A DNA stretch of 64,000 bases, taken from Candidatus Woesearchaeota archaeon. GTDB taxonomy: Archaea; Nanobdellota; Nanobdellia; Pacearchaeales; GW2011-AR1. Each line of letters opens with the position of its first letter. Position 1 is the first letter of the stretch. Under the pieces are notes generated by a model. That model saw only the letters and a program-made list of their open reading frames with translations, searched no databases and had not been told where the DNA came from. The translations under genes and the position numbers were made by a program. Below, piece after piece: positions 3,559-54,619 of this stretch. The stretch spans positions 10,896-74,895 of the forward strand of contig CAYXNX010000002.1 of NCBI GenBank assembly GCA_964467035.1. The letters run 5' to 3'.

Positions 3559-3693
3559 ATTTAATGGAATTTTTTATTGACACTCAATTTTCAGAGCTTG
3601 TCAAATATTTGGTTATTTAGTATTAAATTAGGTCTAAATTTAGGTATTTAAATTTTTGGTTAGTTTTATATATTTAAGTATTTTTATTAGGTT

Positions 3694-4227
3694 ATGGCTC
3701 CAAGAACAAAAAAGAAAATAAAAGCACATTTTAGCGGGGATTCAATTTCAAGTTCTTCAAAAGAAGCAAAAGATATTTATGGAAATAAGCTTTTTGGAGA
3801 ATATGTTTCTAAAAAAATTGTGTATTCATTTTCTGAAGCTTTGTATTTAGTTGAAAAGAAAAAAATGGATATTTATAGAAATACTAAGAAATTAAGTTTT
3901 AATGAAGCTATGGAAAAGTGTAAAAAGCTAGATAGAAAAATTCAAACAAAATATATTGTTTTTAAGGATATGAAAGATAAAGGGTATTTGTTGAAAAGTG
4001 CATTAAAGTTTGGGGCTGATTTTAGAGTTTATGAACCCGGAAATAGGCCTGGAAAAACTCATGCAAAATGGATTTTATTTCCAGTAAGTGAAGATGCTGA
4101 AATGACTTGGCAAGATTTTTCTGCTAAAAATAGGGTTGCCCATAGTACAAAGAAAAATTTGTTAATTGCAATTGTTGATAGTGAAGGAGGAATTACTTAT
4201 TATGAAGTTACTTGGAAAAGGCCTTAA
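3694..4227 (+). CDS. endA: tRNA-splicing endonuclease
   Basis: The C-terminal catalytic domain motif is LKFGADFRVYEPGNRPGKTHAKWILFPV ... RVAHSTKKNLLIAIVD. Confidence 0.85.
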   Translation: MAPRTKKKIKAHFSGDSISSSSKEAKDIYGNKLFGEYVSKKIVYSFSEALYLVEKKKMDIYRNTKKLSFNEAMEKCKKLDRKIQTKYIVFKDMKDKGYLLKSALKFGADFRVYEPGNRPGKTHAKWILFPVSEDAEMTWQDFSAKNRVAHSTKKNLLIAIVDSEGGITYYEVTWKRP

Positions 4228-4907
4228 GAAATCTCAATAGAATTGTCTCCTTTTACTCCAAACTTTTTAACTTTACCATCTAAAAATATTTTTTTGTTTT
4301 CAATTTTTAATTTACCTTCAAATCCCTGTATTTTTAATTCTTCGTTTCTTAAATTTATTTCAGATTTGCTATCTTCGAGAAATATTTTTCCAGAAGTTGA
4401 ATATTCTATCTTTGAAATTCCTATATTGTTTTTTATGTCTAATCGTTTAAGATTAAAATTTTCTTGGATTAAAATTTCTGTAGTTTTTCCTGACTTTGAG
4501 TTTATTGGAAGGTTATTGATTGTTATTTTTTTGCTGTCTCCCTTTAAATTATTTAATCCTTTTTTATCTAATTCGATTTTTCCATCAAATTTTTCCAAGG
4601 AAATTTTGTTAGAAGGTTCTGATAATTGTAATTCTTGATCTTCTATTGAAACTTTTGAATAAGCTGCTGTTAAATCAATATCCCCCAAATTTCCGTTTAA
4701 ATTTATTTCTGGGATTGTAAGTTCTGCTTTAATAGGGATTGAGTCTTCAGAGTTTTCATCAACACCTATTATTTTTCCAGTTAATTCGTTTCCTCCAAAA
4801 ACTGTGAAATAGACAAATCCAAATATAAAAATAAAAACCAAAACAGTTAGTATTGCTTTGGTATTTTTTCTTTTTGGGTTTTCTTGCATTTCTGTTTCAT
4901 CGAGCAT
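4224..4907 (-). CDS. Hypothetical membrane-anchored protein
   Basis: One N-terminal TM helix (AILTVLVFIFIFGFVYFTVF) is followed by a repetitive beta-rich ectodomain. It overlaps the upstream gene by 11 nt. Confidence 0.5.
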   Translation of the reverse strand: MLDETEMQENPKRKNTKAILTVLVFIFIFGFVYFTVFGGNELTGKIIGVDENSEDSIPIKAELTIPEINLNGNLGDIDLTAAYSKVSIEDQELQLSEPSNKISLEKFDGKIELDKKGLNNLKGDSKKITINNLPINSKSGKTTEILIQENFNLKRLDIKNNIGISKIEYSTSGKIFLEDSKSEINLRNEELKIQGFEGKLKIENKKIFLDGKVKKFGVKGDNSIEIS

Positions 4908-5370
4908 TCTTTTTTACCTGTTGCATTTTTTCTTCTAAAAATTGCGCAAATTCTGAGGGGTTATTAATTTCTTTTATTGAGGTTTTTGTTTCGTTTGAGT
5001 ATAATCTAACATTAACGTCTCCATAGTTTAAAATTCTTTGCCAAAGTGTTTGTTCTATATCTATGTCACTTATTGCCATTAAATCAACTCTTTTTGAATT
5101 TTTATTAAAATACCCTGTTGTGAAAATTAGGCATTTTGGGTTTATTTCATATTTATCTCTTAATCTGTGAACTTCTGTTATTTTAATTCCAAATAATGTA
5201 AAAACCCCTATAATTGTTAATACAGGTTTACCAACTGTGTTGCCTGTTACTTTTGCAATTCCAATCGTTACTAAAAGTATGAAAATCATTAGATAAACTG
5301 GTAGATATTTTTTTCTTGAAACTCTTGTTGTTAATTCTGAACCATCTTTTTTTATTTTGTGTTTTGCCAT
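4897..5370 (-). CDS. Membrane protein with a bacterial-PH (YdbS/YdbT-like, bPH_2) domain
   Basis: Two TM helices are followed by DLMAISDIDIEQTLWQRILNYGDVNVRL, a pattern typical of membrane-flanked PH domains. Confidence 0.5.
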   Translation of the reverse strand: MAKHKIKKDGSELTTRVSRKKYLPVYLMIFILLVTIGIAKVTGNTVGKPVLTIIGVFTLFGIKITEVHRLRDKYEINPKCLIFTTGYFNKNSKRVDLMAISDIDIEQTLWQRILNYGDVNVRLYSNETKTSIKEINNPSEFAQFLEEKMQQVKKNAR

Positions 5371-16026: not shown

Positions 16027-16116
16027 TAAATTTGTAGTGAGGGAGTGTTTAAAAAATTTGTTAGTTTTTTGGGTAGGACTACAAAACTTTATAAGTTATT
16101 TTGCATTTTATAATAA

Positions 16117-20009: not shown

Positions 20010-20105
20010 ACAATTAAATTTGCAATTTTATTTTTATACCTTTGTGTTAATTTGAAAAGAGTTACACATCAAAAAATTTATAAATTTCTAATTCTTAAAA
20101 ATTTT

Positions 20106-23079: not shown

Positions 23080-23093
23080 TTTTTTTAGAAATA

Positions 23094-23103
23094 TTTATAA
23101 ATA
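23094..23103 (+). promoter_or_regulatory. Candidate TATA box (TTTATAAATA) of surface-protein paralog A
   Basis: Lies ~35 nt upstream of ATG 23134. The identical sequence sits at the same distance from paralog B. Confidence 0.35.
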
Positions 23104-23133
23104 CTTTTTTATTTGATGGTTTATAAAATTAAA

Positions 23134-25482
23134 ATGAAAAAAAGAAGTGAACTTACAAAGGCTCAAAAGGGAATTTTGGGAGCTATTGTTCTTGTTATTG
23201 TATTGGGATTGGTTGGGGTTTTTTTGTTTAATGTTTTGATTGAAAAACCATTGCTTAGTTCTTCCAGTCCTTATTATATTTATCAAGGAGGAGGTAAGGA
23301 AATTACTTTGGATAGGGAGGATAACGTATCTACTCTTTTTATTAGAGATGAAGGAGATAATAGCGTATATAAGTATAATTTTGGGTATTGGGAGGACGAG
23401 AGGTTTACTATTACTAATGCATATCAAAATGACTCTGAACAGTATTATACGGAAAGGGATAATCGTAATGTAACTGCTTTGGTTTTGAATGAGTCTAAGG
23501 AGGGTGATGTTATTTATCCTCATCAAGAAGGACCTATTAGGGTGATAATCAGGGAAAAAAATGACAACAATATGACTATTAGGGTGGTTGATTTTTCAAG
23601 TGATGAAGAAATTGAGGTAAATGGGGGGGATTATTATTCTTCAAATTCTCTTGTTTTTATTAGTGGTATTAACCCTAGCAATATTGGTGATGAGGGGTTT
23701 TTGAAATATCCAATGACCTATACTAGGAAAGTAACTATTGATGGGGGGGAGTATAATATAAATTATAAAAGTAAAGATTTTTCTGATTTCGGCTATAATT
23801 TGTGGATTTCTAATGTTAATCAAGATTTTGAGGAACAACATTATGAATATTCGGATATTGGTAATAAAACTTATGCGCGTTTTAATATTTCTGAAGGAGA
23901 TGTTATTCATCCTGTTGAGGAAGGGTTGATTAGTTTAGAAGTTAGGGATAAAACAAAGGATTATGTTACTTTAAAGATTGTGGGGGTTGAAGGAAATGTG
24001 AATATTGATGAGAGGGATCCTTATGAGTTTATTGTAGAAGATAGAGGGAATAGGAATTTTATAAAAAATGGTGAGGAATATGGGATTGATTATAACTCTA
24101 ATGGTGGAGATAATGTTTTTGTGGATTTTTCAAATGGGACAAGAATGGGGGAATTTAATTTGGAGGAGGGAGATTCAGAATATTTGAGTGAGGGGAATTT
24201 TTTTCTTGAGATTATTAATAAAACTAATGATTATTTGATTGTGGGGGTAAAGGATAGGGATAGTGAGTGTGATAAAAATCAGGATTGTGATTTTCCTTAT
24301 GAAAAGTGTGTGGATAATGAATGTATTGATAGAGCTTCTTTTAAGGTTCTTGATGTGGATTATGATGATGTGGAAGTAGCATATAGTTTTCCATCTTCTT
24401 TGGGAGGTAGGATAAATGTATGGGCAAATGATGTTGTATATATTTATAATCCTAATGCTGAGGATGAAAAATGGTTTGAGAATGAGATTGGAGATTTGGG
24501 GGGAAATTTGACAGATGATTTTGAAATAGATGCTGGTTATTGGTCTCCTGTTTCAAGAGATGAAGAGTGTGGGGAGGGGGGTTGTATTTATGTTTGGGAT
24601 GGTAAAGAGGTTTATAGGGCTATTCCTGGAAAGGATGGAGGTAAATTTTATAATTATACAGATTCAAAAACCAGTGTTTTGGGAATTGAAGAAGATTTTG
24701 AGCCAGAATTTGGTTATTATGATTCTATAGAAGATAAGGTTGTTCTTGTAAGTGGAGATGAAGTATATCTTTTGAATAGCACTCATAATATAAGTATGGG
24801 ACTTGATGAATTGAGCTGTTTTGATTTTGATTATTTTAATACTACCTTGGGAGATTATGACCCAAATATTAGTGAAAATTATAATGGTTCTATTTGGGGA
24901 GGAGATGATTTTTATAATGATTATGAAGGGTGTGATGGTTTTTGTCCTGAAGGAATTTTTGGAAGTCCTAATGAGTGTGTTTTTGATTATACTGGCGGGG
25001 GAGGAGGGGAATGTGGAGATGGGATAATAGATGAAGATGAAGAATGTGATGGGGATAATTTGAATGATACAAGTTGTTTTGAATTAGGTTATGATGAAGG
25101 AAATCTTTCTTGTAATGATGATTGCACTTTTAATAGAAGTGACTGCGAATTTATTGGAGGTGAAGGAGAAGGTGAAGGAGAGGGAGAAGGAGAGGGTGAG
25201 GGAGAAGGTGAAGGAGAGGGAGAAGAAGAACAATCTTATTGGTGGATTCTTTATGTTGTTTTTGGTATTTTAATTATAGCTATAATTGCAGTAATTGTTT
25301 TTATAATCTTTTTTAGTAAAGGTGGGCAAGATGAAAATTCTGATAAAGATTCAGAATATCTTGTTAGTTCTTCTAATAAGTCAGGTAATTCTGGTGTTCA
25401 ATCTTCTAATTCTCAAAGAAAATCTTTATCGCAGAGTTCTTCTCAATCTCGAAATATTTCTGCAAAAAAAAGCACCAAATAA
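23134..25482 (+). CDS. Large surface/secreted protein, paralog A: N-terminal signal anchor, Cys-rich modules, GE-repeat stalk, C-terminal TM anchor, Ser-rich tail
   Basis: MKKRSELTKAQKGILGAIVLVIVLGLVGVFLF; CGDGIIDEDEECDGDNLNDTSC; (GE)n; EQSYWWILYVVFGILIIAIIAVIVFIIFF. Confidence 0.7.
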   Translation: MKKRSELTKAQKGILGAIVLVIVLGLVGVFLFNVLIEKPLLSSSSPYYIYQGGGKEITLDREDNVSTLFIRDEGDNSVYKYNFGYWEDERFTITNAYQNDSEQYYTERDNRNVTALVLNESKEGDVIYPHQEGPIRVIIREKNDNNMTIRVVDFSSDEEIEVNGGDYYSSNSLVFISGINPSNIGDEGFLKYPMTYTRKVTIDGGEYNINYKSKDFSDFGYNLWISNVNQDFEEQHYEYSDIGNKTYARFNISEGDVIHPVEEGLISLEVRDKTKDYVTLKIVGVEGNVNIDERDPYEFIVEDRGNRNFIKNGEEYGIDYNSNGGDNVFVDFSNGTRMGEFNLEEGDSEYLSEGNFFLEIINKTNDYLIVGVKDRDSECDKNQDCDFPYEKCVDNECIDRASFKVLDVDYDDVEVAYSFPSSLGGRINVWANDVVYIYNPNAEDEKWFENEIGDLGGNLTDDFEIDAGYWSPVSRDEECGEGGCIYVWDGKEVYRAIPGKDGGKFYNYTDSKTSVLGIEEDFEPEFGYYDSIEDKVVLVSGDEVYLLNSTHNISMGLDELSCFDFDYFNTTLGDYDPNISENYNGSIWGGDDFYNDYEGCDGFCPEGIFGSPNECVFDYTGGGGGECGDGIIDEDEECDGDNLNDTSCFELGYDEGNLSCNDDCTFNRSDCEFIGGEGEGEGEGEGEGEGEGEGEGEEEQSYWWILYVVFGILIIAIIAVIVFIIFFSKGGQDENSDKDSEYLVSSSNKSGNSGVQSSNSQRKSLSQSSSQSRNISAKKSTK

Positions 25483-27068: not shown

Positions 27069-27100
27069 TTTTTTATTTTTTATTTTCTTTTTTGGAAATA

Positions 27101-27110
27101 TTTATAAATA
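27101..27110 (+). promoter_or_regulatory. Candidate TATA box (TTTATAAATA) of surface-protein paralog B
   Basis: Same sequence and spacing as 23094-23103, inside the conserved 169-bp block 27095-27263. Confidence 0.35.
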
Positions 27111-27140
27111 CTTTTTTATTTAATAGTTTATAAAATTAAA

Positions 27141-29282
27141 ATGAAAAAAAGAAGTGAACTTACAAGTGCTCAAAAGGGAATTTTGGGAGCTATTGTTCTT
27201 GTTATTGTATTGGGGTTGGTTGGGGTTTTTTTGTTTAATGTTTTGATTGAAAAACCATTGCTTTCTCCTGAAAAAATTTTGGCTGGTCAAACTGAAGATA
27301 TTCGGTTGGATTTGGGAGAATCAAAAAATTTATCAATTAGTGGAAAAAATTATACTTTGAAGTATACTGATTCTGACTTTAATAATAATTGGGATTCTTC
27401 TGATGAAAATGCAATTTTTGTTTTGTGGGATGAAGAGGAAGTAGAGACTGTTTATTTTAATCAGGGTGATGATTTAGAATTTGAGGAAAATTTACCATTT
27501 AAGATTTTTGTTAAATCTGTTGTTCATAATACTTATACAGATAGGGTTACTTTGGAAATTACAAGTGGGGTATTTATTGAACCAGGTAGTTCTGAAAAAT
27601 TTGAAGTTGAAAAATCAAGTGAAGAAGCTTTGTTTTTTGGTGATGAAATCAAGTATTGGGTTTCACTTCCTTCTTCAGGCGATGAATTGAGGTTTGTTGA
27701 GTGGAGCGAATCTGGGGGAAAGATTACTAGTTCTAAGGAATTTCCGAAGTTTGAAAAAGGTTGTTTGAGTGTTAGAGAGGAGGGTTGGCCTATGGCTGTT
27801 TATTTGACTGAAGTTAACGATGAAAGTATTGAATTAGAAGTTTATAATAATGATTATGAAATTGAGGAATATTGTGAAGATGATAGAAATTGTTTTGATG
27901 AAAAATGTTTAGCTGGTTTTTGTGTTGGTAGTTCTAATGTAGATGAAAGTAAATTTCATGATATGGATAAAAATAGGGATTACAATATTGAACTTTCTGA
28001 ATTATCAAGGATTATTCAATTTCATAATTCTGAAGGGTATCATTGCCAAACTGGAACTGAAGAGGGTTATGCTCCTGGAGTTAATGATGGTAAGCAGGAG
28101 TGTGGAACTCATGATGCTGATTTAAATGGGGATTGGAAGATTAATGGAACAGAATTAAATAGGGTTATTGAATTTTTTGATGAGGGCTATTATCCTTCGG
28201 AGGAAACTAAAGATGGTTTTGAAATTGGAGAAGGAAATGATTGCGGAACTAATGATGAGTGTTCAGGCGGAGGTGTTTGTTTAAACGGTGTTTGTGTTCA
28301 AGGAGTTAATTTTGATTGTAGTTCTGATGATGTTTGTGGAGATAACGAGGTTTGTCAAAATGGGCACTGTATACTCCTTAGTTGTCCTTATACATTTGGG
28401 AGTGAATATCATAAAGCTGATTTGAATGGGGATTGGAAAATCGATGTTGGGGAATTGTTAAGGATTATTCAATTTCATAATTCTGAAGGGTATCATTGTA
28501 ATCCTGCATCTGAAGATGGTTATGCTCCAGGAGTTGATGATGATAGGCATATGTGTGGAACTCATGATGCTGATTTAGATGGGGATTGGAAAATTGATGG
28601 GGAAGAATTAAATAGGATTAGGGAGTTTAATAAGAATGGATTTAAGTATTGTCCTGAAGAAGATACTACTGATGGTTATTGTATAAGAGGGGGTGGAGAA
28701 GAAGGTGAAGGAGAAGGTGAACCCCCTAGTCCTGGAGGAGGTCCTTCTGGAGGAGGTCCTTCTGGAGAAGAAGATGATTGCGGAGATGGGATAGTAGATG
28801 AAGATGAAGAATGTGATGGGGATAATTTGAGTGGTAAAAGTTGTCTTGATTGGGGTTATGATAAGGGAACTCTTTCTTGTGATGAGGATTGTAATTTTGA
28901 TAGAAGGGGTTGTGGATATGAAGGAAGTGAAGGAGAAGGTGAAGGAGAAGAAGGAGAAGGGGAAGGAGAAGGGGAAGGAGAAGAACAATCTTATTGGTGG
29001 ATTCTTTATGTTGTTTTTGGTATTTTAATTATAGCTATAATTGCAGTAATTGTTTTTATAATCTTTTTTAGTAAAAAGGGTAAGGAGGGTTTTGGAAAAG
29101 GAAAATTATCTAAAGATAAACAAGATTTGGGTAAAAATAAATCAAATCAAAATGTTTCTTCAAAATCTTTGAAAGACCTGCCCAAAAATTCTGAAAAAAA
29201 ATCCTCTAAAAAAATTGTTAAAAAATCAAGGGATAAAGATTATAAAAACATAGGTCCAAAAATGAAGGATAATTTGGATTAA
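27141..29282 (+). CDS. Large surface/secreted protein, paralog B: signal anchor, four dockerin/EF-hand-like Ca-binding loops, Cys-rich modules, GE stalk, C-terminal TM anchor, Lys-rich tail
   Basis: The N- and C-terminal cassettes are near-identical to paralog A. Also DLNGDWKINGTELNRVIEFF-type loops and CGDGIVDEDEECDGDNLSGKSC. Confidence 0.7.
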   Translation: MKKRSELTSAQKGILGAIVLVIVLGLVGVFLFNVLIEKPLLSPEKILAGQTEDIRLDLGESKNLSISGKNYTLKYTDSDFNNNWDSSDENAIFVLWDEEEVETVYFNQGDDLEFEENLPFKIFVKSVVHNTYTDRVTLEITSGVFIEPGSSEKFEVEKSSEEALFFGDEIKYWVSLPSSGDELRFVEWSESGGKITSSKEFPKFEKGCLSVREEGWPMAVYLTEVNDESIELEVYNNDYEIEEYCEDDRNCFDEKCLAGFCVGSSNVDESKFHDMDKNRDYNIELSELSRIIQFHNSEGYHCQTGTEEGYAPGVNDGKQECGTHDADLNGDWKINGTELNRVIEFFDEGYYPSEETKDGFEIGEGNDCGTNDECSGGGVCLNGVCVQGVNFDCSSDDVCGDNEVCQNGHCILLSCPYTFGSEYHKADLNGDWKIDVGELLRIIQFHNSEGYHCNPASEDGYAPGVDDDRHMCGTHDADLDGDWKIDGEELNRIREFNKNGFKYCPEEDTTDGYCIRGGGEEGEGEGEPPSPGGGPSGGGPSGEEDDCGDGIVDEDEECDGDNLSGKSCLDWGYDKGTLSCDEDCNFDRRGCGYEGSEGEGEGEEGEGEGEGEGEEQSYWWILYVVFGILIIAIIAVIVFIIFFSKKGKEGFGKGKLSKDKQDLGKNKSNQNVSSKSLKDLPKNSEKKSSKKIVKKSRDKDYKNIGPKMKDNLD

Positions 29283-33057: not shown

Positions 33058-33127
33058 TTTTTATTTTTTCTTTTCTTTTTATTTTCTTTTTATTTTCTTT
33101 TTATTTTCTTTTCTTTTTATTTTTTTG
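33058..33127. repeat. Pyrimidine-rich low-complexity tract with TTTTTATTTTC-type tandem units
   Basis: About 70 nt with no G on the + strand, between the dockerin gene and rarA. Confidence 0.6.
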
Positions 33128-39053: not shown

Positions 39054-40532
39054 ATGAATGATTTAGATTTTGTTAAAAAACATCAAAAAGAAATTATTTT
39101 ATTATCTAGTGCTGGGGTTTTGATGGGGTGGGATCAGCAAGTTTATATGCCTGAGCTGGGAAGTGATTCAAGAGCTAAAACTTCTTCTTTAGTGAGTAGT
39201 TTGATTCATGAAAAAATTGCTGACGATGATTTTTTTAAAGCATTAAAAAGATTGAAAAAAGAAGATTTGAAAAAAGAGGATAAAATAATGGTGGAAAGAG
39301 TTTGCAAAGATGTTGAAAAAACGAGAAAACTTCCTAAAGAGTTTGTCGAGGAGCTTAGTGAAATAGAATCTCTTGGATTTTCTGCTTGGCAAAAAGCAAA
39401 AAAGAAAAACGATTTTAAGATTTTTCAACCTTATTTAGAAAAGTTGGTTGAATTAAATAAGAAGAAAGCAAATTATTATGGGTATAAAGGACATATTTAT
39501 AATGCTTTGTTAGATGATTATGAAGAGGGTATGAGTGTTGAAGAACTGAAGCCGAAATTTAAAAAACTAAAAAAAGAATTAATTGAATTATTGAATAAAA
39601 TTGAAAGTTCTCAAAAGTATAAAGAGATTGAAAAACAAAAAATTAAGATTTTAAATGAAAATCAAATGGAATTGGTGAAGGATGTTTCTGAGAGAATTGG
39701 TTTAGAAAATAAAAATACAAGGATTGATTTTTCAGAGCATCCATTTACAACTAAGATTGGGTTTAATGATGTAAGAATTACTACGAATATAAGAGATGAT
39801 GTGTTTTTTTCTTTTACTTCAACAGTTCATGAGGCAGGACATGCGTTATATGAATTACAAATGCCTGAGAAACACAAATATGATTTTTTAGGAGAAGCTC
39901 CTAGTTTGGGTTTGCATGAGTCACAATCTCGGTTGTGGGAAAATATGGTTGGGAAAAGTAAGAATTTTTGGATTTATTATAGTAAAAAATTTGATAAAAT
40001 TTTTGGAGAAAAGAAAGGCAAAGATTTTTGGTATGAATCAATTAATTGTGTTTTTCCAGGGAAGATAAGGGTTGAGTCAGATGAAGTTCATTATTGTTTG
40101 CATATTATTTTAAGGTTTGAGTTAGAATTGGGTTTGATGGAAGGGAGTATTAAGGTGGATGAATTGCCGAAAATTTGGAATGAAAAAATGAAAGAGTTTT
40201 TTGGAGTTAAAGTTGAGAATGATGCCGAGGGTGTTTTGCAAGATGTTCATTGGAGTGAAGGAATTTTTGGTTATTTTCCAACTTATGCTTTGGGAACGAT
40301 TTATGCTACACAGATTTATGATGTTATGAAAGGAGAAATTAAGGATTTGGAAAAAAAGATTTCTCGAGGGGATTTTGGAGATATAAGGGATTGGTTAGAA
40401 AAAAATATTCATAAGTATGGGAGAAAATATTTGTCTGAAAATTTGATTAAAAAAGTTACTGGAAGAGGATTAGATATTGAAAATTATGTACGATATTTGA
40501 ATGAGAAGTATGGTGAGATTTATGGATTTTAA
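39054..40532 (+). CDS. Metallocarboxypeptidase, family M32 (Taq-type)
   Basis: HEAGHALYE, HESQSRLWEN and IRVESDEVHYCLHIILRFELE. Confidence 0.9.
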   Translation: MNDLDFVKKHQKEIILLSSAGVLMGWDQQVYMPELGSDSRAKTSSLVSSLIHEKIADDDFFKALKRLKKEDLKKEDKIMVERVCKDVEKTRKLPKEFVEELSEIESLGFSAWQKAKKKNDFKIFQPYLEKLVELNKKKANYYGYKGHIYNALLDDYEEGMSVEELKPKFKKLKKELIELLNKIESSQKYKEIEKQKIKILNENQMELVKDVSERIGLENKNTRIDFSEHPFTTKIGFNDVRITTNIRDDVFFSFTSTVHEAGHALYELQMPEKHKYDFLGEAPSLGLHESQSRLWENMVGKSKNFWIYYSKKFDKIFGEKKGKDFWYESINCVFPGKIRVESDEVHYCLHIILRFELELGLMEGSIKVDELPKIWNEKMKEFFGVKVENDAEGVLQDVHWSEGIFGYFPTYALGTIYATQIYDVMKGEIKDLEKKISRGDFGDIRDWLEKNIHKYGRKYLSENLIKKVTGRGLDIENYVRYLNEKYGEIYGF

Positions 40533-45261: not shown

Positions 45262-45509
45262 TTTTCCTTCAATTTTGGTTTGTTGGTGAATTTAATTCTT
45301 AGAATTATTTAAAGATTTGGATAACTAATTTATTGGTATTTTGTAGGGGATTAGTTATTGGAAAAGTGCAAGAAAGGAGGAGGGTTTGGGGTTAAATTAT
45401 TTTTGAAGTGGGTTTTTGAGTAGTTGGATTTGAGATTTTTATTATTTTGTTATAAATTAAATTTTTGAATATCAGTAAGTTTTTTAAATATTGGATTGTT
45501 AGTTTAATT

Positions 45510-46157
45510 ATGTTTAAGAAAAACAAATGCTCCAATTGTGGAGGTAAAATTTCTAAGGATTTTGAATTTTGCCCTTATTGTGGTAATAATTTACAAAGCG
45601 ATAGTGGAAACTATGGGTTTTTGGGAAAAAGTGATTCTGAAAATTTAGAAGACAATTTGCCTTTTGGATTTGGGGCTGTTTTAAAACCTTTGATGAAAGA
45701 GTTGACAAAACAAATGTCTCAGCTTGATAAAGAACTTAAAAGAGATAATGGGAAAGATAATTTTAAAAATACTGGTTTTAGTGTAAATTTTTCAACTCCT
45801 GGGCATAAACCAATAAAAATCAAAGCAGTTGGTCCAAATGCTAGAAAGGAAATTGAAAAGAAAAAACCATTAGAATTGCCAAAATTTTCTGAAGATAAAT
45901 TGAGAAAAATGAGAAAATCAAAAAGGGAAGAGCCAAAGACTTCGGTTAGAAGATTGTCAGACAGTGTTGTTTATGAGCTTGATGTTCCTAAGGTTGATTC
46001 TTTAGAAAATGTTAATATAACTAAACTTGAAAATTCTTTTGAAATTAAGGCTATTTCAGAAGATGTTGTTTATGAAAAAAATATTGAAGTTAGTTTTCCT
46101 CTAGTAAGTTATTCTTTAGAAAATTCTTCTTTAATTTTAGAGTTTGGGGCTAAGTAA
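45510..46157 (+). CDS. Zinc-ribbon protein with a possible C-terminal Hsp20/ACD-like beta domain
   Basis: CSNCGGKISKDFEFCPYCG. C-terminus VVYELDVPKVDSLENVNITKLENSFEIKA. Confidence 0.45.
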   Translation: MFKKNKCSNCGGKISKDFEFCPYCGNNLQSDSGNYGFLGKSDSENLEDNLPFGFGAVLKPLMKELTKQMSQLDKELKRDNGKDNFKNTGFSVNFSTPGHKPIKIKAVGPNARKEIEKKKPLELPKFSEDKLRKMRKSKREEPKTSVRRLSDSVVYELDVPKVDSLENVNITKLENSFEIKAISEDVVYEKNIEVSFPLVSYSLENSSLILEFGAK

Positions 46158-46172
46158 TTTTAAAATTTTAAA

Positions 46173-46247
46173 TGAGCCTGCACGGATTCGAACCGTGGAC
46201 CCCTACCTTATCAGAGTAGTGCTCTAACCTGGCTGAGCTACAGGCTC
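46173..46247 (-). tRNA. tRNA-Ile (anticodon GAT)
   Basis: The reverse complement gives GAGCCTG/CAGGCTC acceptor, GCTC/GAGC D-stem, CTACT-CTGATAA-GGTAG anticodon arm, CACGG-TTCGAAT-CCGTG T-arm. Confidence 0.9.
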
Positions 46248-46520
46248 ACGTTTTTGTTTGTCGCCTTCCACTCGTTTTCCTCTCAAGTTCGGAAAAGAGC
46301 TACAGGCTCACGTTTTTGTTTGTCGCCTTCCACTCGTTTTCCTCTCAAGTTCGGAAAAGAGCTACAGGCTCCTATGTTCGCCTTCCACTCGTTTTCCTCT
46401 CAAGTTCGGAAAAGAGCTACGGAGACTTTATGTCTCTCCACTCGTTTTCCTCTCAAGTTCGGAAAAGAGCAACAGGCTCCTATGTTCGCCTTCCACTTGT
46501 TTTCCTCTCAAGTTCGGAAA
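46248..46520. repeat. Five-unit tandem array (periods 62, 62, 55, 53, 55 bp) abutting the 5' end of tRNA-Ile
   Basis: The core CCACTCGTTTTCCTCTCAAGTTCGGAAAA starts at 46268, 46330, 46385, 46438 and 46493. Cores 1, 2 and 4 are followed by (near-)copies of GAGCTACAGGCTC, core 3 by a truncated GAGCTACGG, and the degenerate fifth core by none. Confidence 0.9.
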
Positions 46521-46776
46521 ATTAGTTGAAAGCTATTTCAAATTATATTGAAAAACAATTTATAAGGCTTTTGATGGGTTGGATTTTGTTGAACATTTAA
46601 TTTTGCTTTATTTTGGTTTTTTAGTTTCTTATCAGGGTTTGGCTTGTCAAAATTTTTCTATATTTTGCTTAAATAGTTTGAGTTTTTGAAAATTAAAATT
46701 CTTTACAATTTTTTACAATTTTTTAATAAAACTCTGATTTGCAAAGCTTTTTAAATCATTTTTTTCTTTGGTTCTA

Positions 46777-47301
46777 ATGGCTGGATTATATCAATTTATG
46801 AAACAAGCATGGAAAAAACCTGACAGGGAAGGTTTGAGAGAAAGAATGATTCAATGGAGAAAAGACCCTAGTGTTTTGAAAGTTGAAAAACCTTTGAGGT
46901 TGGATAGGGCGCGAGCATTGGGGTATAAAGCTAAAACAGGTTTTGTTGTTGCAAGGGTGAGGGTGGTGAGAGGAGGACATAAAAGAACTAGGCCAAGAAA
47001 AGGAAGAAAGGTTAGAAATTTAACAATTAGAAAAAATCTTTCAATGAATTATAAAGAGATTGCCGAGAGGAGAGCTCAAATGAGATTTAAAAATTTAGAA
47101 GTTCTCAATTCTTATAATTTAAGCAAAGATGGAAGATATTATTTTTATGAAGTAATTTTGGTTGATCCTGAGAGAAATGAAATAAAAAATGATAAAGATG
47201 TTGGTTGGATTTCTTCAAAGAAAAACAAAAATAGGGTTTTGAGAGGATTGACTAGTGCAGGTGATAAGTCAAGAGGGCTTAGAGGAAAGAAAAGGAATTA
47301 A
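46777..47301 (+). CDS. rpl15e: 50S ribosomal protein eL15
   Basis: MAGLYQFMKQAWKKP...MIQWRKDPSVLKVEKPLRLDRARALGYKAKTGFVVARVRV. Confidence 0.9.
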   Translation: MAGLYQFMKQAWKKPDREGLRERMIQWRKDPSVLKVEKPLRLDRARALGYKAKTGFVVARVRVVRGGHKRTRPRKGRKVRNLTIRKNLSMNYKEIAERRAQMRFKNLEVLNSYNLSKDGRYYFYEVILVDPERNEIKNDKDVGWISSKKNKNRVLRGLTSAGDKSRGLRGKKRN

Positions 47302-54534: not shown

Positions 54535-54619
54535 ATTTGGGTTAAAAAAACATCTTTTATAAAATTTTGCAAGTGTTCAAATTCGATAGACTTTTAAATC
54601 AAGTTTTTATAAGTTTTAT

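Follow-up and report, generated by a model that had tools for sequence, protein, structure and literature searches.

A candidate tandemly amplified 5′ leader of pre-tRNA-Ile(GAU) with repeated copies of the tRNA 5′ end in a DPANN archaeon

Introduction

The 5′ leaders of tRNA precursors are typically short and weakly conserved, and they are treated as disposable. The element described here is a tandem array located directly upstream of a tRNA-Ile(GAU) gene in a 64-kb stretch of archaeal DNA (contig CAYXNX010000002.1, positions 10,896 to 74,895, hereafter called the window), and one of its components is conserved as strongly as the tRNA itself in three species. Each unit comprises a 29-nt core (X), an A-rich linker (L) and a copy of nt 1-13 of the tRNA (F, or decoy). 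From sequence comparison and folding models, we favour, with a probability of about 0.55, the explanation that this array is a lineage-specific, tandemly amplified 5′ leader of pre-tRNA-Ile(GAU) that is kept under selection.

The known archaeal duplicates of tRNA fragments flank integrase-bearing elements of 2-23 kb and usually involve ~40-50 nt, and the tRNA fragments reported in the literature come from element integration and from one CRISPR spacer (PMC9897764, PMC3293823). Like these duplicates of attachment (att) sites, the present array includes a short direct repeat of a part of the tRNA that adjoins the intact gene, in a recombination-prone locus showing tRNA fragments and an orientation flip in relatives. 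However, it repeats 13 nt of the 5′ end every 53-62 bp, includes no element or integrase, and its intervening sequence is conserved like a structural RNA. Another comparison is offered by engineered RNase P riboswitches, which mask the leader beside the cleavage site in a ligand-responsive manner (PMC8925977). As in structured pre-tRNA leaders, the pairing of upstream hairpins would decide, according to our models, whether the tRNA 5′ end is available for folding and cleavage. Unlike in the engineered leaders, these hairpins are predicted to mask decoy 5′ ends and are arranged in tandem, and a ligand or switch is known only for the engineered ones.

The array also shares features with three other types of systems: (i) CRISPR arrays, by its near-identical 29-nt direct repeat, its regular 24-33-nt intervals and its degenerate terminal repeat, although the intervals copy each other and the neighbouring gene, the window has no cas genes and a relative shows a single-copy state; (ii) the ToxI antitoxins of type III toxin-antitoxin systems, by its head-to-tail short structured RNA units upstream of a gene on the same strand, except that there is no toxin gene, that the downstream gene is a tRNA and that the units hold a fragment of this gene; and (iii) disrupted archaeal tRNA genes, by its DPANN/Nanoarchaeota context, the separate tRNA pieces, the intron in the tRNA-Ile of relatives and the presence of EndA in the window. 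In contrast to split, permuted or multi-intron tRNAs, the gene is intact and intron-less, and no joining is needed. An intron or bulge-helix-bulge at nt 13/14 seems unlikely, as no 3-4-3 motif was seen at the 13/14 junctions by inspection (no dedicated search was made). The prediction that no equivalent had been described, made earlier from the sequence of this locus alone, agrees with our literature searches, which found no description of a leader in which decoy 5′ ends, each with its own antisense, are repeated in tandem. The locus is also a warning for annotation: it combines CRISPR-like geometry with tRNA fragments, yet is probably neither a CRISPR array nor an integration scar.

Organization of the array

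On the minus strand, the locus is composed successively of a promoter box, ~22 nt, a decayed tRNA start, five X each with L and F, and tRNA-Ile, whose start is the last F of the array. The core TTTTCCGAACTTGAGAGGAAAACGAGTGG has five copies in the window, one of them with one mismatch, compared to zero expected (100 shuffles). From the tRNA-distal to the tRNA-proximal one, the stretches that follow the cores are 26, 24, 26, 33 and 33 nt long and all consist of L then F. Besides its occurrence at the tRNA start, GAGCCTGTAGCTC is found in the array as two exact copies and one copy with one mismatch; the fourth F fragment is degenerate (CCGTAGCTC). The two tRNA-proximal 62-bp units are identical, and the distal units display a point change in F (A9T), a changed tail in the fifth core (X5) and one remodelled linker and fragment. 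Tandem Repeats Finder detected 5.0 copies with a period of 62/55 and a score of 366. The GC content is 0.48-0.49 in the array vs 0.22-0.30 in its flanks. On re-reading, everything that the original prediction had stated about the sequence of the tRNA, units and fragments and about GC content proved correct.

The array is located between the promoter and the tRNA, on the same strand, without any terminator or gene in between, the longest T run within a unit being TTTT. Judging from the sequence, it occupies the position by which a pre-tRNA 5′ leader is defined, and it would be transcribed and then removed by RNase P. A search of 46100-46800 with the Rfam 15 covariance models gave the tRNA as the sole match at E up to 5. 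Compared to its counterpart in a related genome (L007), tRNA-Ile shows two compensatory double changes, one in the anticodon stem and one in the T stem, which indicates that it is a working gene.

Conservation and copy number in related genomes

Three species carry X: that of the window, that of L007 and a third one, species C (L017-L019). Among them, identity amounts to 93-100% for the tRNA, 89-97% for X plus AAGGCGA and 100% for the promoter box, compared to 38-60% for the rest of the linker and 50-60% for the upstream and downstream intergenic DNA. The differences in X are confined to the apex of the hairpin loop (GAACTTGAGA vs GAGTTCAGA) and to the linker. Since X is conserved like the tRNA while its flanks are only 50-60% identical, sequence comparison indicates that it is under purifying selection.

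The syntenic locus is made of the genes of MetRS, a Zn-ribbon protein, tRNA-Ile, L15e, ligase, TBP and MCM. Its comparison in relatives, a check already proposed with the original prediction, revealed five units in the window, three in L007, one in species C and none in L010, L012, L063, L064 and L065. In L007, whose ligase is 77% identical, the array consists of three perfect 55-bp units, TTTTCCGAGTTCAGAGGAAAACGAGTGG + AAGGCGAATAACAT + GAGCCTGTAGCTC, an arrangement that recurs in assemblies from other samples (L008, L006). Species C, with an L15e 81% identical, has one X between two copies of AAACATATGAGCCTGTAGCTC, and its repeat of the tRNA 5′ end is 21 nt long; the locus is identical across the three samples save two T-to-G differences within the tRNA in L017. 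The more distant L010 and L064 lack X, have a promoter displaced by ~66 and ~30 nt, respectively, and carry GGGTCTG or GAGTCTG where the old tRNA start lay. L012, L063 and L065 also lack X and have an intron-containing tRNA-Ile on the other strand. The promoter box is immediately upstream of tRNA-Ile in L012 and L063, whereas for L065 the strand and intron alone were read. In the X-less relatives, tRNA-Ile(GAU) has an anticodon-loop intron of ~36-56 nt (L012:4096-4226, L063:162-288, L065:1915-2025, L010:2867-2987), and three of these four (L012, L063, L065) have it on the strand opposite to L15e. The loss of the intron coincides with the gain of X, all three X-bearing species being intron-less.

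Outside this locus, the search for related sequences was negative. In 146 kb, the covariance model of the module retrieved no copy other than the nine already known, none of the other tRNAs is preceded by copies of its own 5′ end, and no antisense target of the X tail was found in the window outside the array. Exact-pattern scans with the core pattern TTCCGAACTTGAGAGGAAAAC gave no match in GTDB genomes, viral contigs and JGI metagenomes. The pattern GGAAAACGAGTGGAAGGCGA had four chance matches in metagenomes, in GC-rich bacterial coding sequence, and a gapped core pattern had 41 matches in viral contigs, all in one acidic C-terminal coding stretch of a single phage gene.

The locus shows several other peculiarities in relatives. 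At L018:2850-2945, and also in L017 and L019, a 38-nt insert is followed by a second, perfect copy of the last 21 nt of the tRNA plus 13 nt of trailer; the insert holds an inverted and decayed copy of the T arm (GATTTGAACCATGAAC vs GATTCGAACCGTGGAC, p about 0.005). An inverted T-arm-like sequence, GGATTCGAAC, is also found directly downstream of tRNA-Ile in L012. The tRNA of L017 (3663-3739) has a D stem changed from GCTC to GCGC and an anticodon changed from GAT to GAG, and is called tRNA-Leu(GAG) by ARAGORN; the other two assemblies of species C have a normal Ile(GAT), and L017 may contain an error of sequencing or assembly, or represent a minor variant. L007 has an additional 135-aa open reading frame (ORF) without Pfam match between the array and L15e (3612-4019) and a 50-aa ORF between L15e and ligase (4776-4928). 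As both are missing from the window, this intergenic neighbourhood appears to gain or lose small genes. L010 (GCA_034717335.1) has, between tRNA-Ile and L15e, a ~400-nt GC-rich intergenic stretch (3700-4110, minus strand) in which TTCCGAAC is followed ~85 nt downstream, on the same strand, by GAGTGGAAGGCG, two motifs with which X begins and ends, here also in that order. As an X-related RNA gene, this stretch was rejected: it has no Rfam match, ORF, better-than-shuffled fold or match to the covariance model. A truncated ORF with a NYN domain (88 aa) lies beside it. Finally, the Illumina adapter-like GACGTGTGAGCGTCCGATCGGCTC fused to the array at L008:1-22 is a contig-end artefact and not biology.

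Predicted folding of the units and of the precursor

The tail of X, GAGUGGAAGGC, is an imperfect antisense of F: 7/11 positions match the exact reverse complement (p about 0.018), and the comparison of the right arm of X with the reverse complement of F plus the left arm gives 13/17 matches (p about 0.002). This complementarity, the conservation of the module in relatives and the decayed tRNA start beside a displaced promoter come in addition to what had been noticed previously at this locus. When folded alone on the tRNA strand, a single F+X unit forms one hairpin in all three species, in which F nt 3-6 (GCCU) pair with AGGC, F nt 10-13 (GCUC) with GAGU, and UUUUCC with GGAAAA. The hairpin has a GUA/GGA internal loop between the AGGC and GAGU helices, a bulged C and a 9-10-nt loop. 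Its predicted free energy is -18.3/-18.4/-16.1 kcal/mol (window/L007/species C), with z about -2.9, and it represents 68-90% of the ensemble. For the antisense strand of the unit, in which the G.U pairs are lost, the energy is only -13.3 with z -1.3. In these models, the difference between strands points to an RNA made from the tRNA strand.

The whole precursors were modelled by partition-function folding of the predicted transcripts of the three species. In these models, the decoys F are all engaged with X tails, with a probability (P) of 0.86-0.97, whereas the genuine tRNA 5′ end pairs with such tails with P of 0.07 or less. For the genuine acceptor stem, P is 0.72 in the window, 0.99 in L007 and 0.91 in species C, and the sole competing decoy (0.27) is the one whose partner tail is mutated. 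When the tails are scrambled with their composition kept (30 replicates), the mean P of the genuine stem falls to 0.16/0.24/0.22 and the decoys take the 3′ strand; when the loops are scrambled instead, it is 0.52/0.99/0.86 (both in the order window/L007/species C). The hairpins would presumably form locally during transcription. The original prediction had raised the idea of a functional repeated leader or decoy RNA. It gains partial support from the conservation of X, which equals that of the tRNA, and from the hairpins predicted to hold the decoys, the functional role itself being putative.

The displaced promoter and the relic of a tRNA start

It had also been anticipated that an AT-rich region beyond 46520 might drive transcription across the array. 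A transcription factor B recognition element (BRE)/TATA promoter box, AAAGCCTTATAAAT, is indeed directed into the array at 46558-46571 (minus strand; it includes TTATAAAT at 46565-46558), with a predicted transcription start ~21 nt downstream, near 46537. This box is one of three perfect matches to AAAGCnTTnTAAAT in the 64 kb. Sites of this consensus (for example 425-438, 16083-16096, 20072-20085, 45476-45489, 46743-46756 and 54586-54599) stand exactly 20 nt before the ATG of several window genes, including that of L15e. Because of this exact distance, the mRNAs of these genes are probably leaderless. The third perfect match, AAAGCATTATAAAT (39495-39508, minus strand), is antisense within a gene of M32 carboxypeptidase and may be an antisense promoter or a chance occurrence.

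In ordinary tRNA genes, such as tRNA-Met (2691, minus strand) and tRNA-Arg (37697, plus strand), G1 is 22-23 nt after the TATA-like box, and the ordinary tRNAs of this genome appear nearly leaderless, as has been reported for Nanoarchaeum equitans. In L012, G1 of tRNA-Ile is at +23 from the promoter box. At this same distance in the window, the putative relic of an older tRNA 5′ end, TAGCTTTCAACTAA (46522-46535, minus strand), is found; it is thus located at the position of G1 in the array-free relatives. It shows 7/13 matches to GAGCCTGTAGCTC at +23, the best offset tested (p about 0.012). The corresponding counts are 9/13 at +22 in L007 (p about 3e-4) and 5/13 at the register of the box in species C, the latter not significant. 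The promoter box, 100% conserved upstream of the arrays of the window, L007 and species C, would be the ancestral tRNA promoter, left upstream by an insertion after nt 13. Leaders transcribed from it would now measure ~290 nt (window), 165 nt (L007) and 97 nt (species C). A promoter internal to each unit was rejected: there is no TATA-like box, the distance from GGAAAAC to G1 varies (5′ edge at ~-33, -30 and -27 in the three species), and from the linker-based BRE/TATA look-alike transcription would begin inside the tRNA.

Unit-by-unit map of the array

All the following features are on the minus strand. Intact and intron-less, tRNA-Ile(GAU) extends over 46247-46173 (ARAGORN; Rfam, 68.7 bits). 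Its immediate 5′ leader, AAGGCGACAAACAAAAACGT (46248-46267), is predicted to be mostly single-stranded, with P(unpaired) of 0.67-1.0 at -7 to -2 and 0.26 at -1. The tRNA-nearest core, X1 (46268-46296), and X2 (46330-46358) are exact 29-nt cores. They are separated by the linker AAGGCGACAAACAAAAACGT and an exact decoy fragment (46297-46309), which together occupy 46297-46329 and form with X2 a unit identical to the proximal one. After the linker AAGGCGAACATAG and an exact decoy GAGCCTGTAGCTC (46359-46371), both included in 46359-46384, X3 (46385-46413) scores 69.8 bits with the covariance model. It is followed at 46414-46437 by the remodelled linker and degenerate fragment, AGAGACATAAAGTCTCCGTAGCTC, which, read with the two preceding G's, could form its own GGAGAC/GUCUCC hairpin. 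X4 (46438-46466) is an exact core whose tail runs on into this remodelled linker. Beyond the linker AAGGCGAACATAG and the decoy GAGCCTGTTGCTC with one mismatch (46467-46492), the tRNA-farthest core, X5 (46493-46521), has one mismatch, a G to A in its tail.

Discussion

In the explanation that we favour, transcription would begin at the consensus promoter stranded upstream of the array, and the nascent leader is predicted to fold as a string of hairpins in which each decoy 5′ end is occupied by an X tail. The genuine 5′ end would thus be free for the single acceptor 3′ strand, and RNase P, whose protein components have been reported in essentially all archaea examined (PMC6380272), would remove the ~290-nt leader. 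The constraint on X would come, at the minimum, from the misfolding of the tRNA that a decoy left unpaired would cause.

The comparison of relatives suggests a history in four stages. Initially, the promoter would have stood directly before an intron-containing tRNA, as in L012 and L063 (L065 has the same strand and an intron). A short duplication would then have displaced the promoter while a decayed start remained, as in L010 and L064. The structure F-X-L-F would have arisen in the ancestor shared by the three Pacearchaeota species, when tRNA nt 13/14 became the site of a duplication that may have involved fold-back: X would have been inserted after nt 13, the leader and nt 1-13 copied again and the intron lost, a state seen in species C. 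Finally, unequal recombination or slippage between the F/L repeats would have led from one copy to the three of L007 and the five of the window. The amplification of leader and 5′ tRNA by slippage or recombination, one of the origins proposed initially, fits the copy numbers of 1, 3 and 5 and the fact that units are most alike within a genome. The recurrence of the breakpoint may be due to a GAGC/GCTC mini-hairpin, which nucleotides 1-13 of the tRNA can form by themselves, and the sequence of the anti-fragment tail would be the expected product of a fold-back (inverted) copying step. Other sources of X were not significant, namely a decayed copy of the ancestral leader (distal region of species C, leader of L010), the tRNA body or T arm, and kinship with the 3′ insert of species C. 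Origin-recognition-box or centromere-like repeats were dropped, as this idea was based on a 7-nt resemblance only and the array is absent in close relatives with the same synteny of replication genes.

Several points weigh against this explanation. A role as insulator leaves unexplained why the units have not simply been lost by recombination between repeats, nor does it account for the invariance of the upper stem and of the GA...AGA loop ends. Covariation analysis found no double changes, F being fixed by the tRNA and only three lineages being available; as no covariation could be scored, the hairpin could reflect a fold-back origin and not structural selection. At equilibrium, multi-unit leaders use nested inter-unit pairing or alternative registers, so the assignment of tails to decoys is not fixed. 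Prefix folding, meant to approximate folding during transcription, gave no decision on the register either, the equilibrium minimum free energy structures favouring nested inter-unit pairing. Furthermore, the energy model fails to recover the D stem. Since G1 of ordinary tRNAs is only 22-23 nt from the TATA box, the reliance on RNase P here is an assumption, and no component of RNase P was identified among the genes of the 64-kb window.

The hairpin modules could instead be a positively selected RNA device and not a neutralised by-product, a tentative alternative that we regard as possible but rather unlikely. The device could be a folding or processing switch gating RNase P, a stabilising 5′ structure, a source of discrete hairpin RNAs, or a set of protein-binding sites with a dose set by copy number. 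X has persisted in all three species although the repeats on either side could recombine and remove it without a trace; its upper stem, GA...AGA loop ends and purine-rich tail are invariant beyond the needs of pairing with F; the fold of the sense strand is stronger than that of the antisense strand; and leader structure does control RNase P cleavage in engineered systems (PMC8925977). However, the module matches no known RNA family, inspection revealed no K-turn, C/D, H/ACA or bulge-helix-bulge motif, it is present at a single locus, and copy numbers of one to five suggest a non-critical dose. A preQ1-like riboswitch and a ribozyme were likewise rejected by inspection, without Rfam match at E up to 5. 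It is similarly doubtful, while conceivable, that decoy 5′ ends with their built-in anti-fragments govern how pre-tRNA-Ile folds, how stable it is or how RNase P matures it, or that they give rise to discrete hairpin RNAs, with a tunable copy number. At the opposite extreme, the array would be a neutral minisatellite produced by slippage of leader and 5′ tRNA, its likeness between species resulting from recent ancestry or concerted evolution. The head-to-tail units, the copy number differing between species (1, 3, 5), the identity of the proximal units and the decay of the distal fragments in the window are all as expected from such a process. We consider the absence of any function improbable, because X is 89-97% identical where intergenic DNA is 50-60% and even the L15e and ligase proteins only 77-81%, and because X holds ~50% GC in a 30% GC genome.

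Partial copies of a tRNA lying beside the intact gene are the classic mark of an integration event (PMC9897764, PMC3293823), and a mobile element could have left the array at the 5′ end of tRNA-Ile as a relic or landing pad, with F as att-core duplicates and X as an element arm or a recombinase-binding site. Repeated integration and excision at an att site had been envisaged in the original prediction. X is GC-rich relative to its host and has a 6-bp inverted repeat, a direct repeat identical to part of the intact tRNA gene is present (GAGCCTGTAGCTC; 21 nt in species C), and the locus underwent other rearrangements (the duplicated 3′ end of species C, the flipped orientation in L012, L063 and L065, the extra ORFs in L007 and L010). 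Nevertheless, we give this origin little credit: neither the 64-kb window nor the related loci have an integrase, a transposase or an element body; every F meets X at the same junction, in units of 53-62 bp in which the "element" would be only ~42-49 bp and the duplicated part 13-21 nt; X had no match in viral, metagenome and GTDB scans, the sensitivity of which was limited to exact patterns, and the viral contigs gave no candidate attP; and X is confined to one strand, its position relative to the tRNA being fixed. A miniature or degenerate CRISPR array, with a 29-nt repeat and 24-33-nt "spacers", is effectively refuted. Its five near-identical repeats, periods of 53-62 bp and mismatch in the terminal repeat are reminiscent of CRISPRs, but the "spacers" share homology with one another and with the adjoining leader/tRNA and are all identical in L007, species C has a single repeat, and no cas genes are found in the 64-kb window.

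An assembly artefact, i.e. a chimeric or mis-collapsed repeat, is also very improbable, and would put at risk the copy number alone, not the existence of the array. The Logan contigs break in or near the array and leave out its central ~220 bp, and the 137-bp perfect repeat block is near short-read length. The Logan assembly of run SRR11308339 matches 46441-46800 exactly, its contig beginning within the repeat, and the contig from the opposite side stops at ~46219, within the tRNA. The middle of the array (~46220-46440) and the exact number of perfect 62-bp units hence depend on the source assembly. In contrast, the distal end and its junction are exactly reproduced by the Logan contig, and the same architecture is present in two other species, in assemblies of at least five independent samples. 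As the module recurs in other species and independent assemblies, the array is real and not an artefact.

If the leader explanation is true, a partial gene duplication that should be toxic for folding can be tolerated, and then fixed, by means of a compensating antisense segment, and this locus would make it possible to study, in a natural setting, the way in which the structure of a leader guides the folding of a tRNA and its processing by RNase P in DPANN archaea. If the RNA device exists, it would be a natural counterpart of the engineered RNase P riboswitches and a new type of cis-regulatory element for archaeal tRNA.

Genomic context and other features of the window

The array is in the neighbourhood of genes encoding L15e, an ATP-dependent DNA ligase, TBP, MCM, MetRS and GatB, and the nearest homologues of the ligase and of L15e carry Pacearchaeota or Nanoarchaeota labels (DPANN). 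A Pfam survey of 54 ORFs of the 64-kb window identified housekeeping genes only; reverse transcriptases, Cas proteins, transposases and integrases were all absent. At 3694-4227 lies the gene of the tRNA splicing endonuclease EndA. Two large ORFs of 788 and 713 aa (23089-25482 and 27096-29282) have no convincing Pfam domain and resemble a duplicated cassette. Both are preceded by the same AAATATTTATAAAT box and TATTGT repeat (23184, 27191), and each holds Gly/Glu-rich tandem repeats of the GGAGAA type (25158-25230, 28919-28983). Lastly, a 69-nt T-rich tract made of period-11 TTTTTATTTTC repeats (33058-33126) lies between two plus-strand genes.

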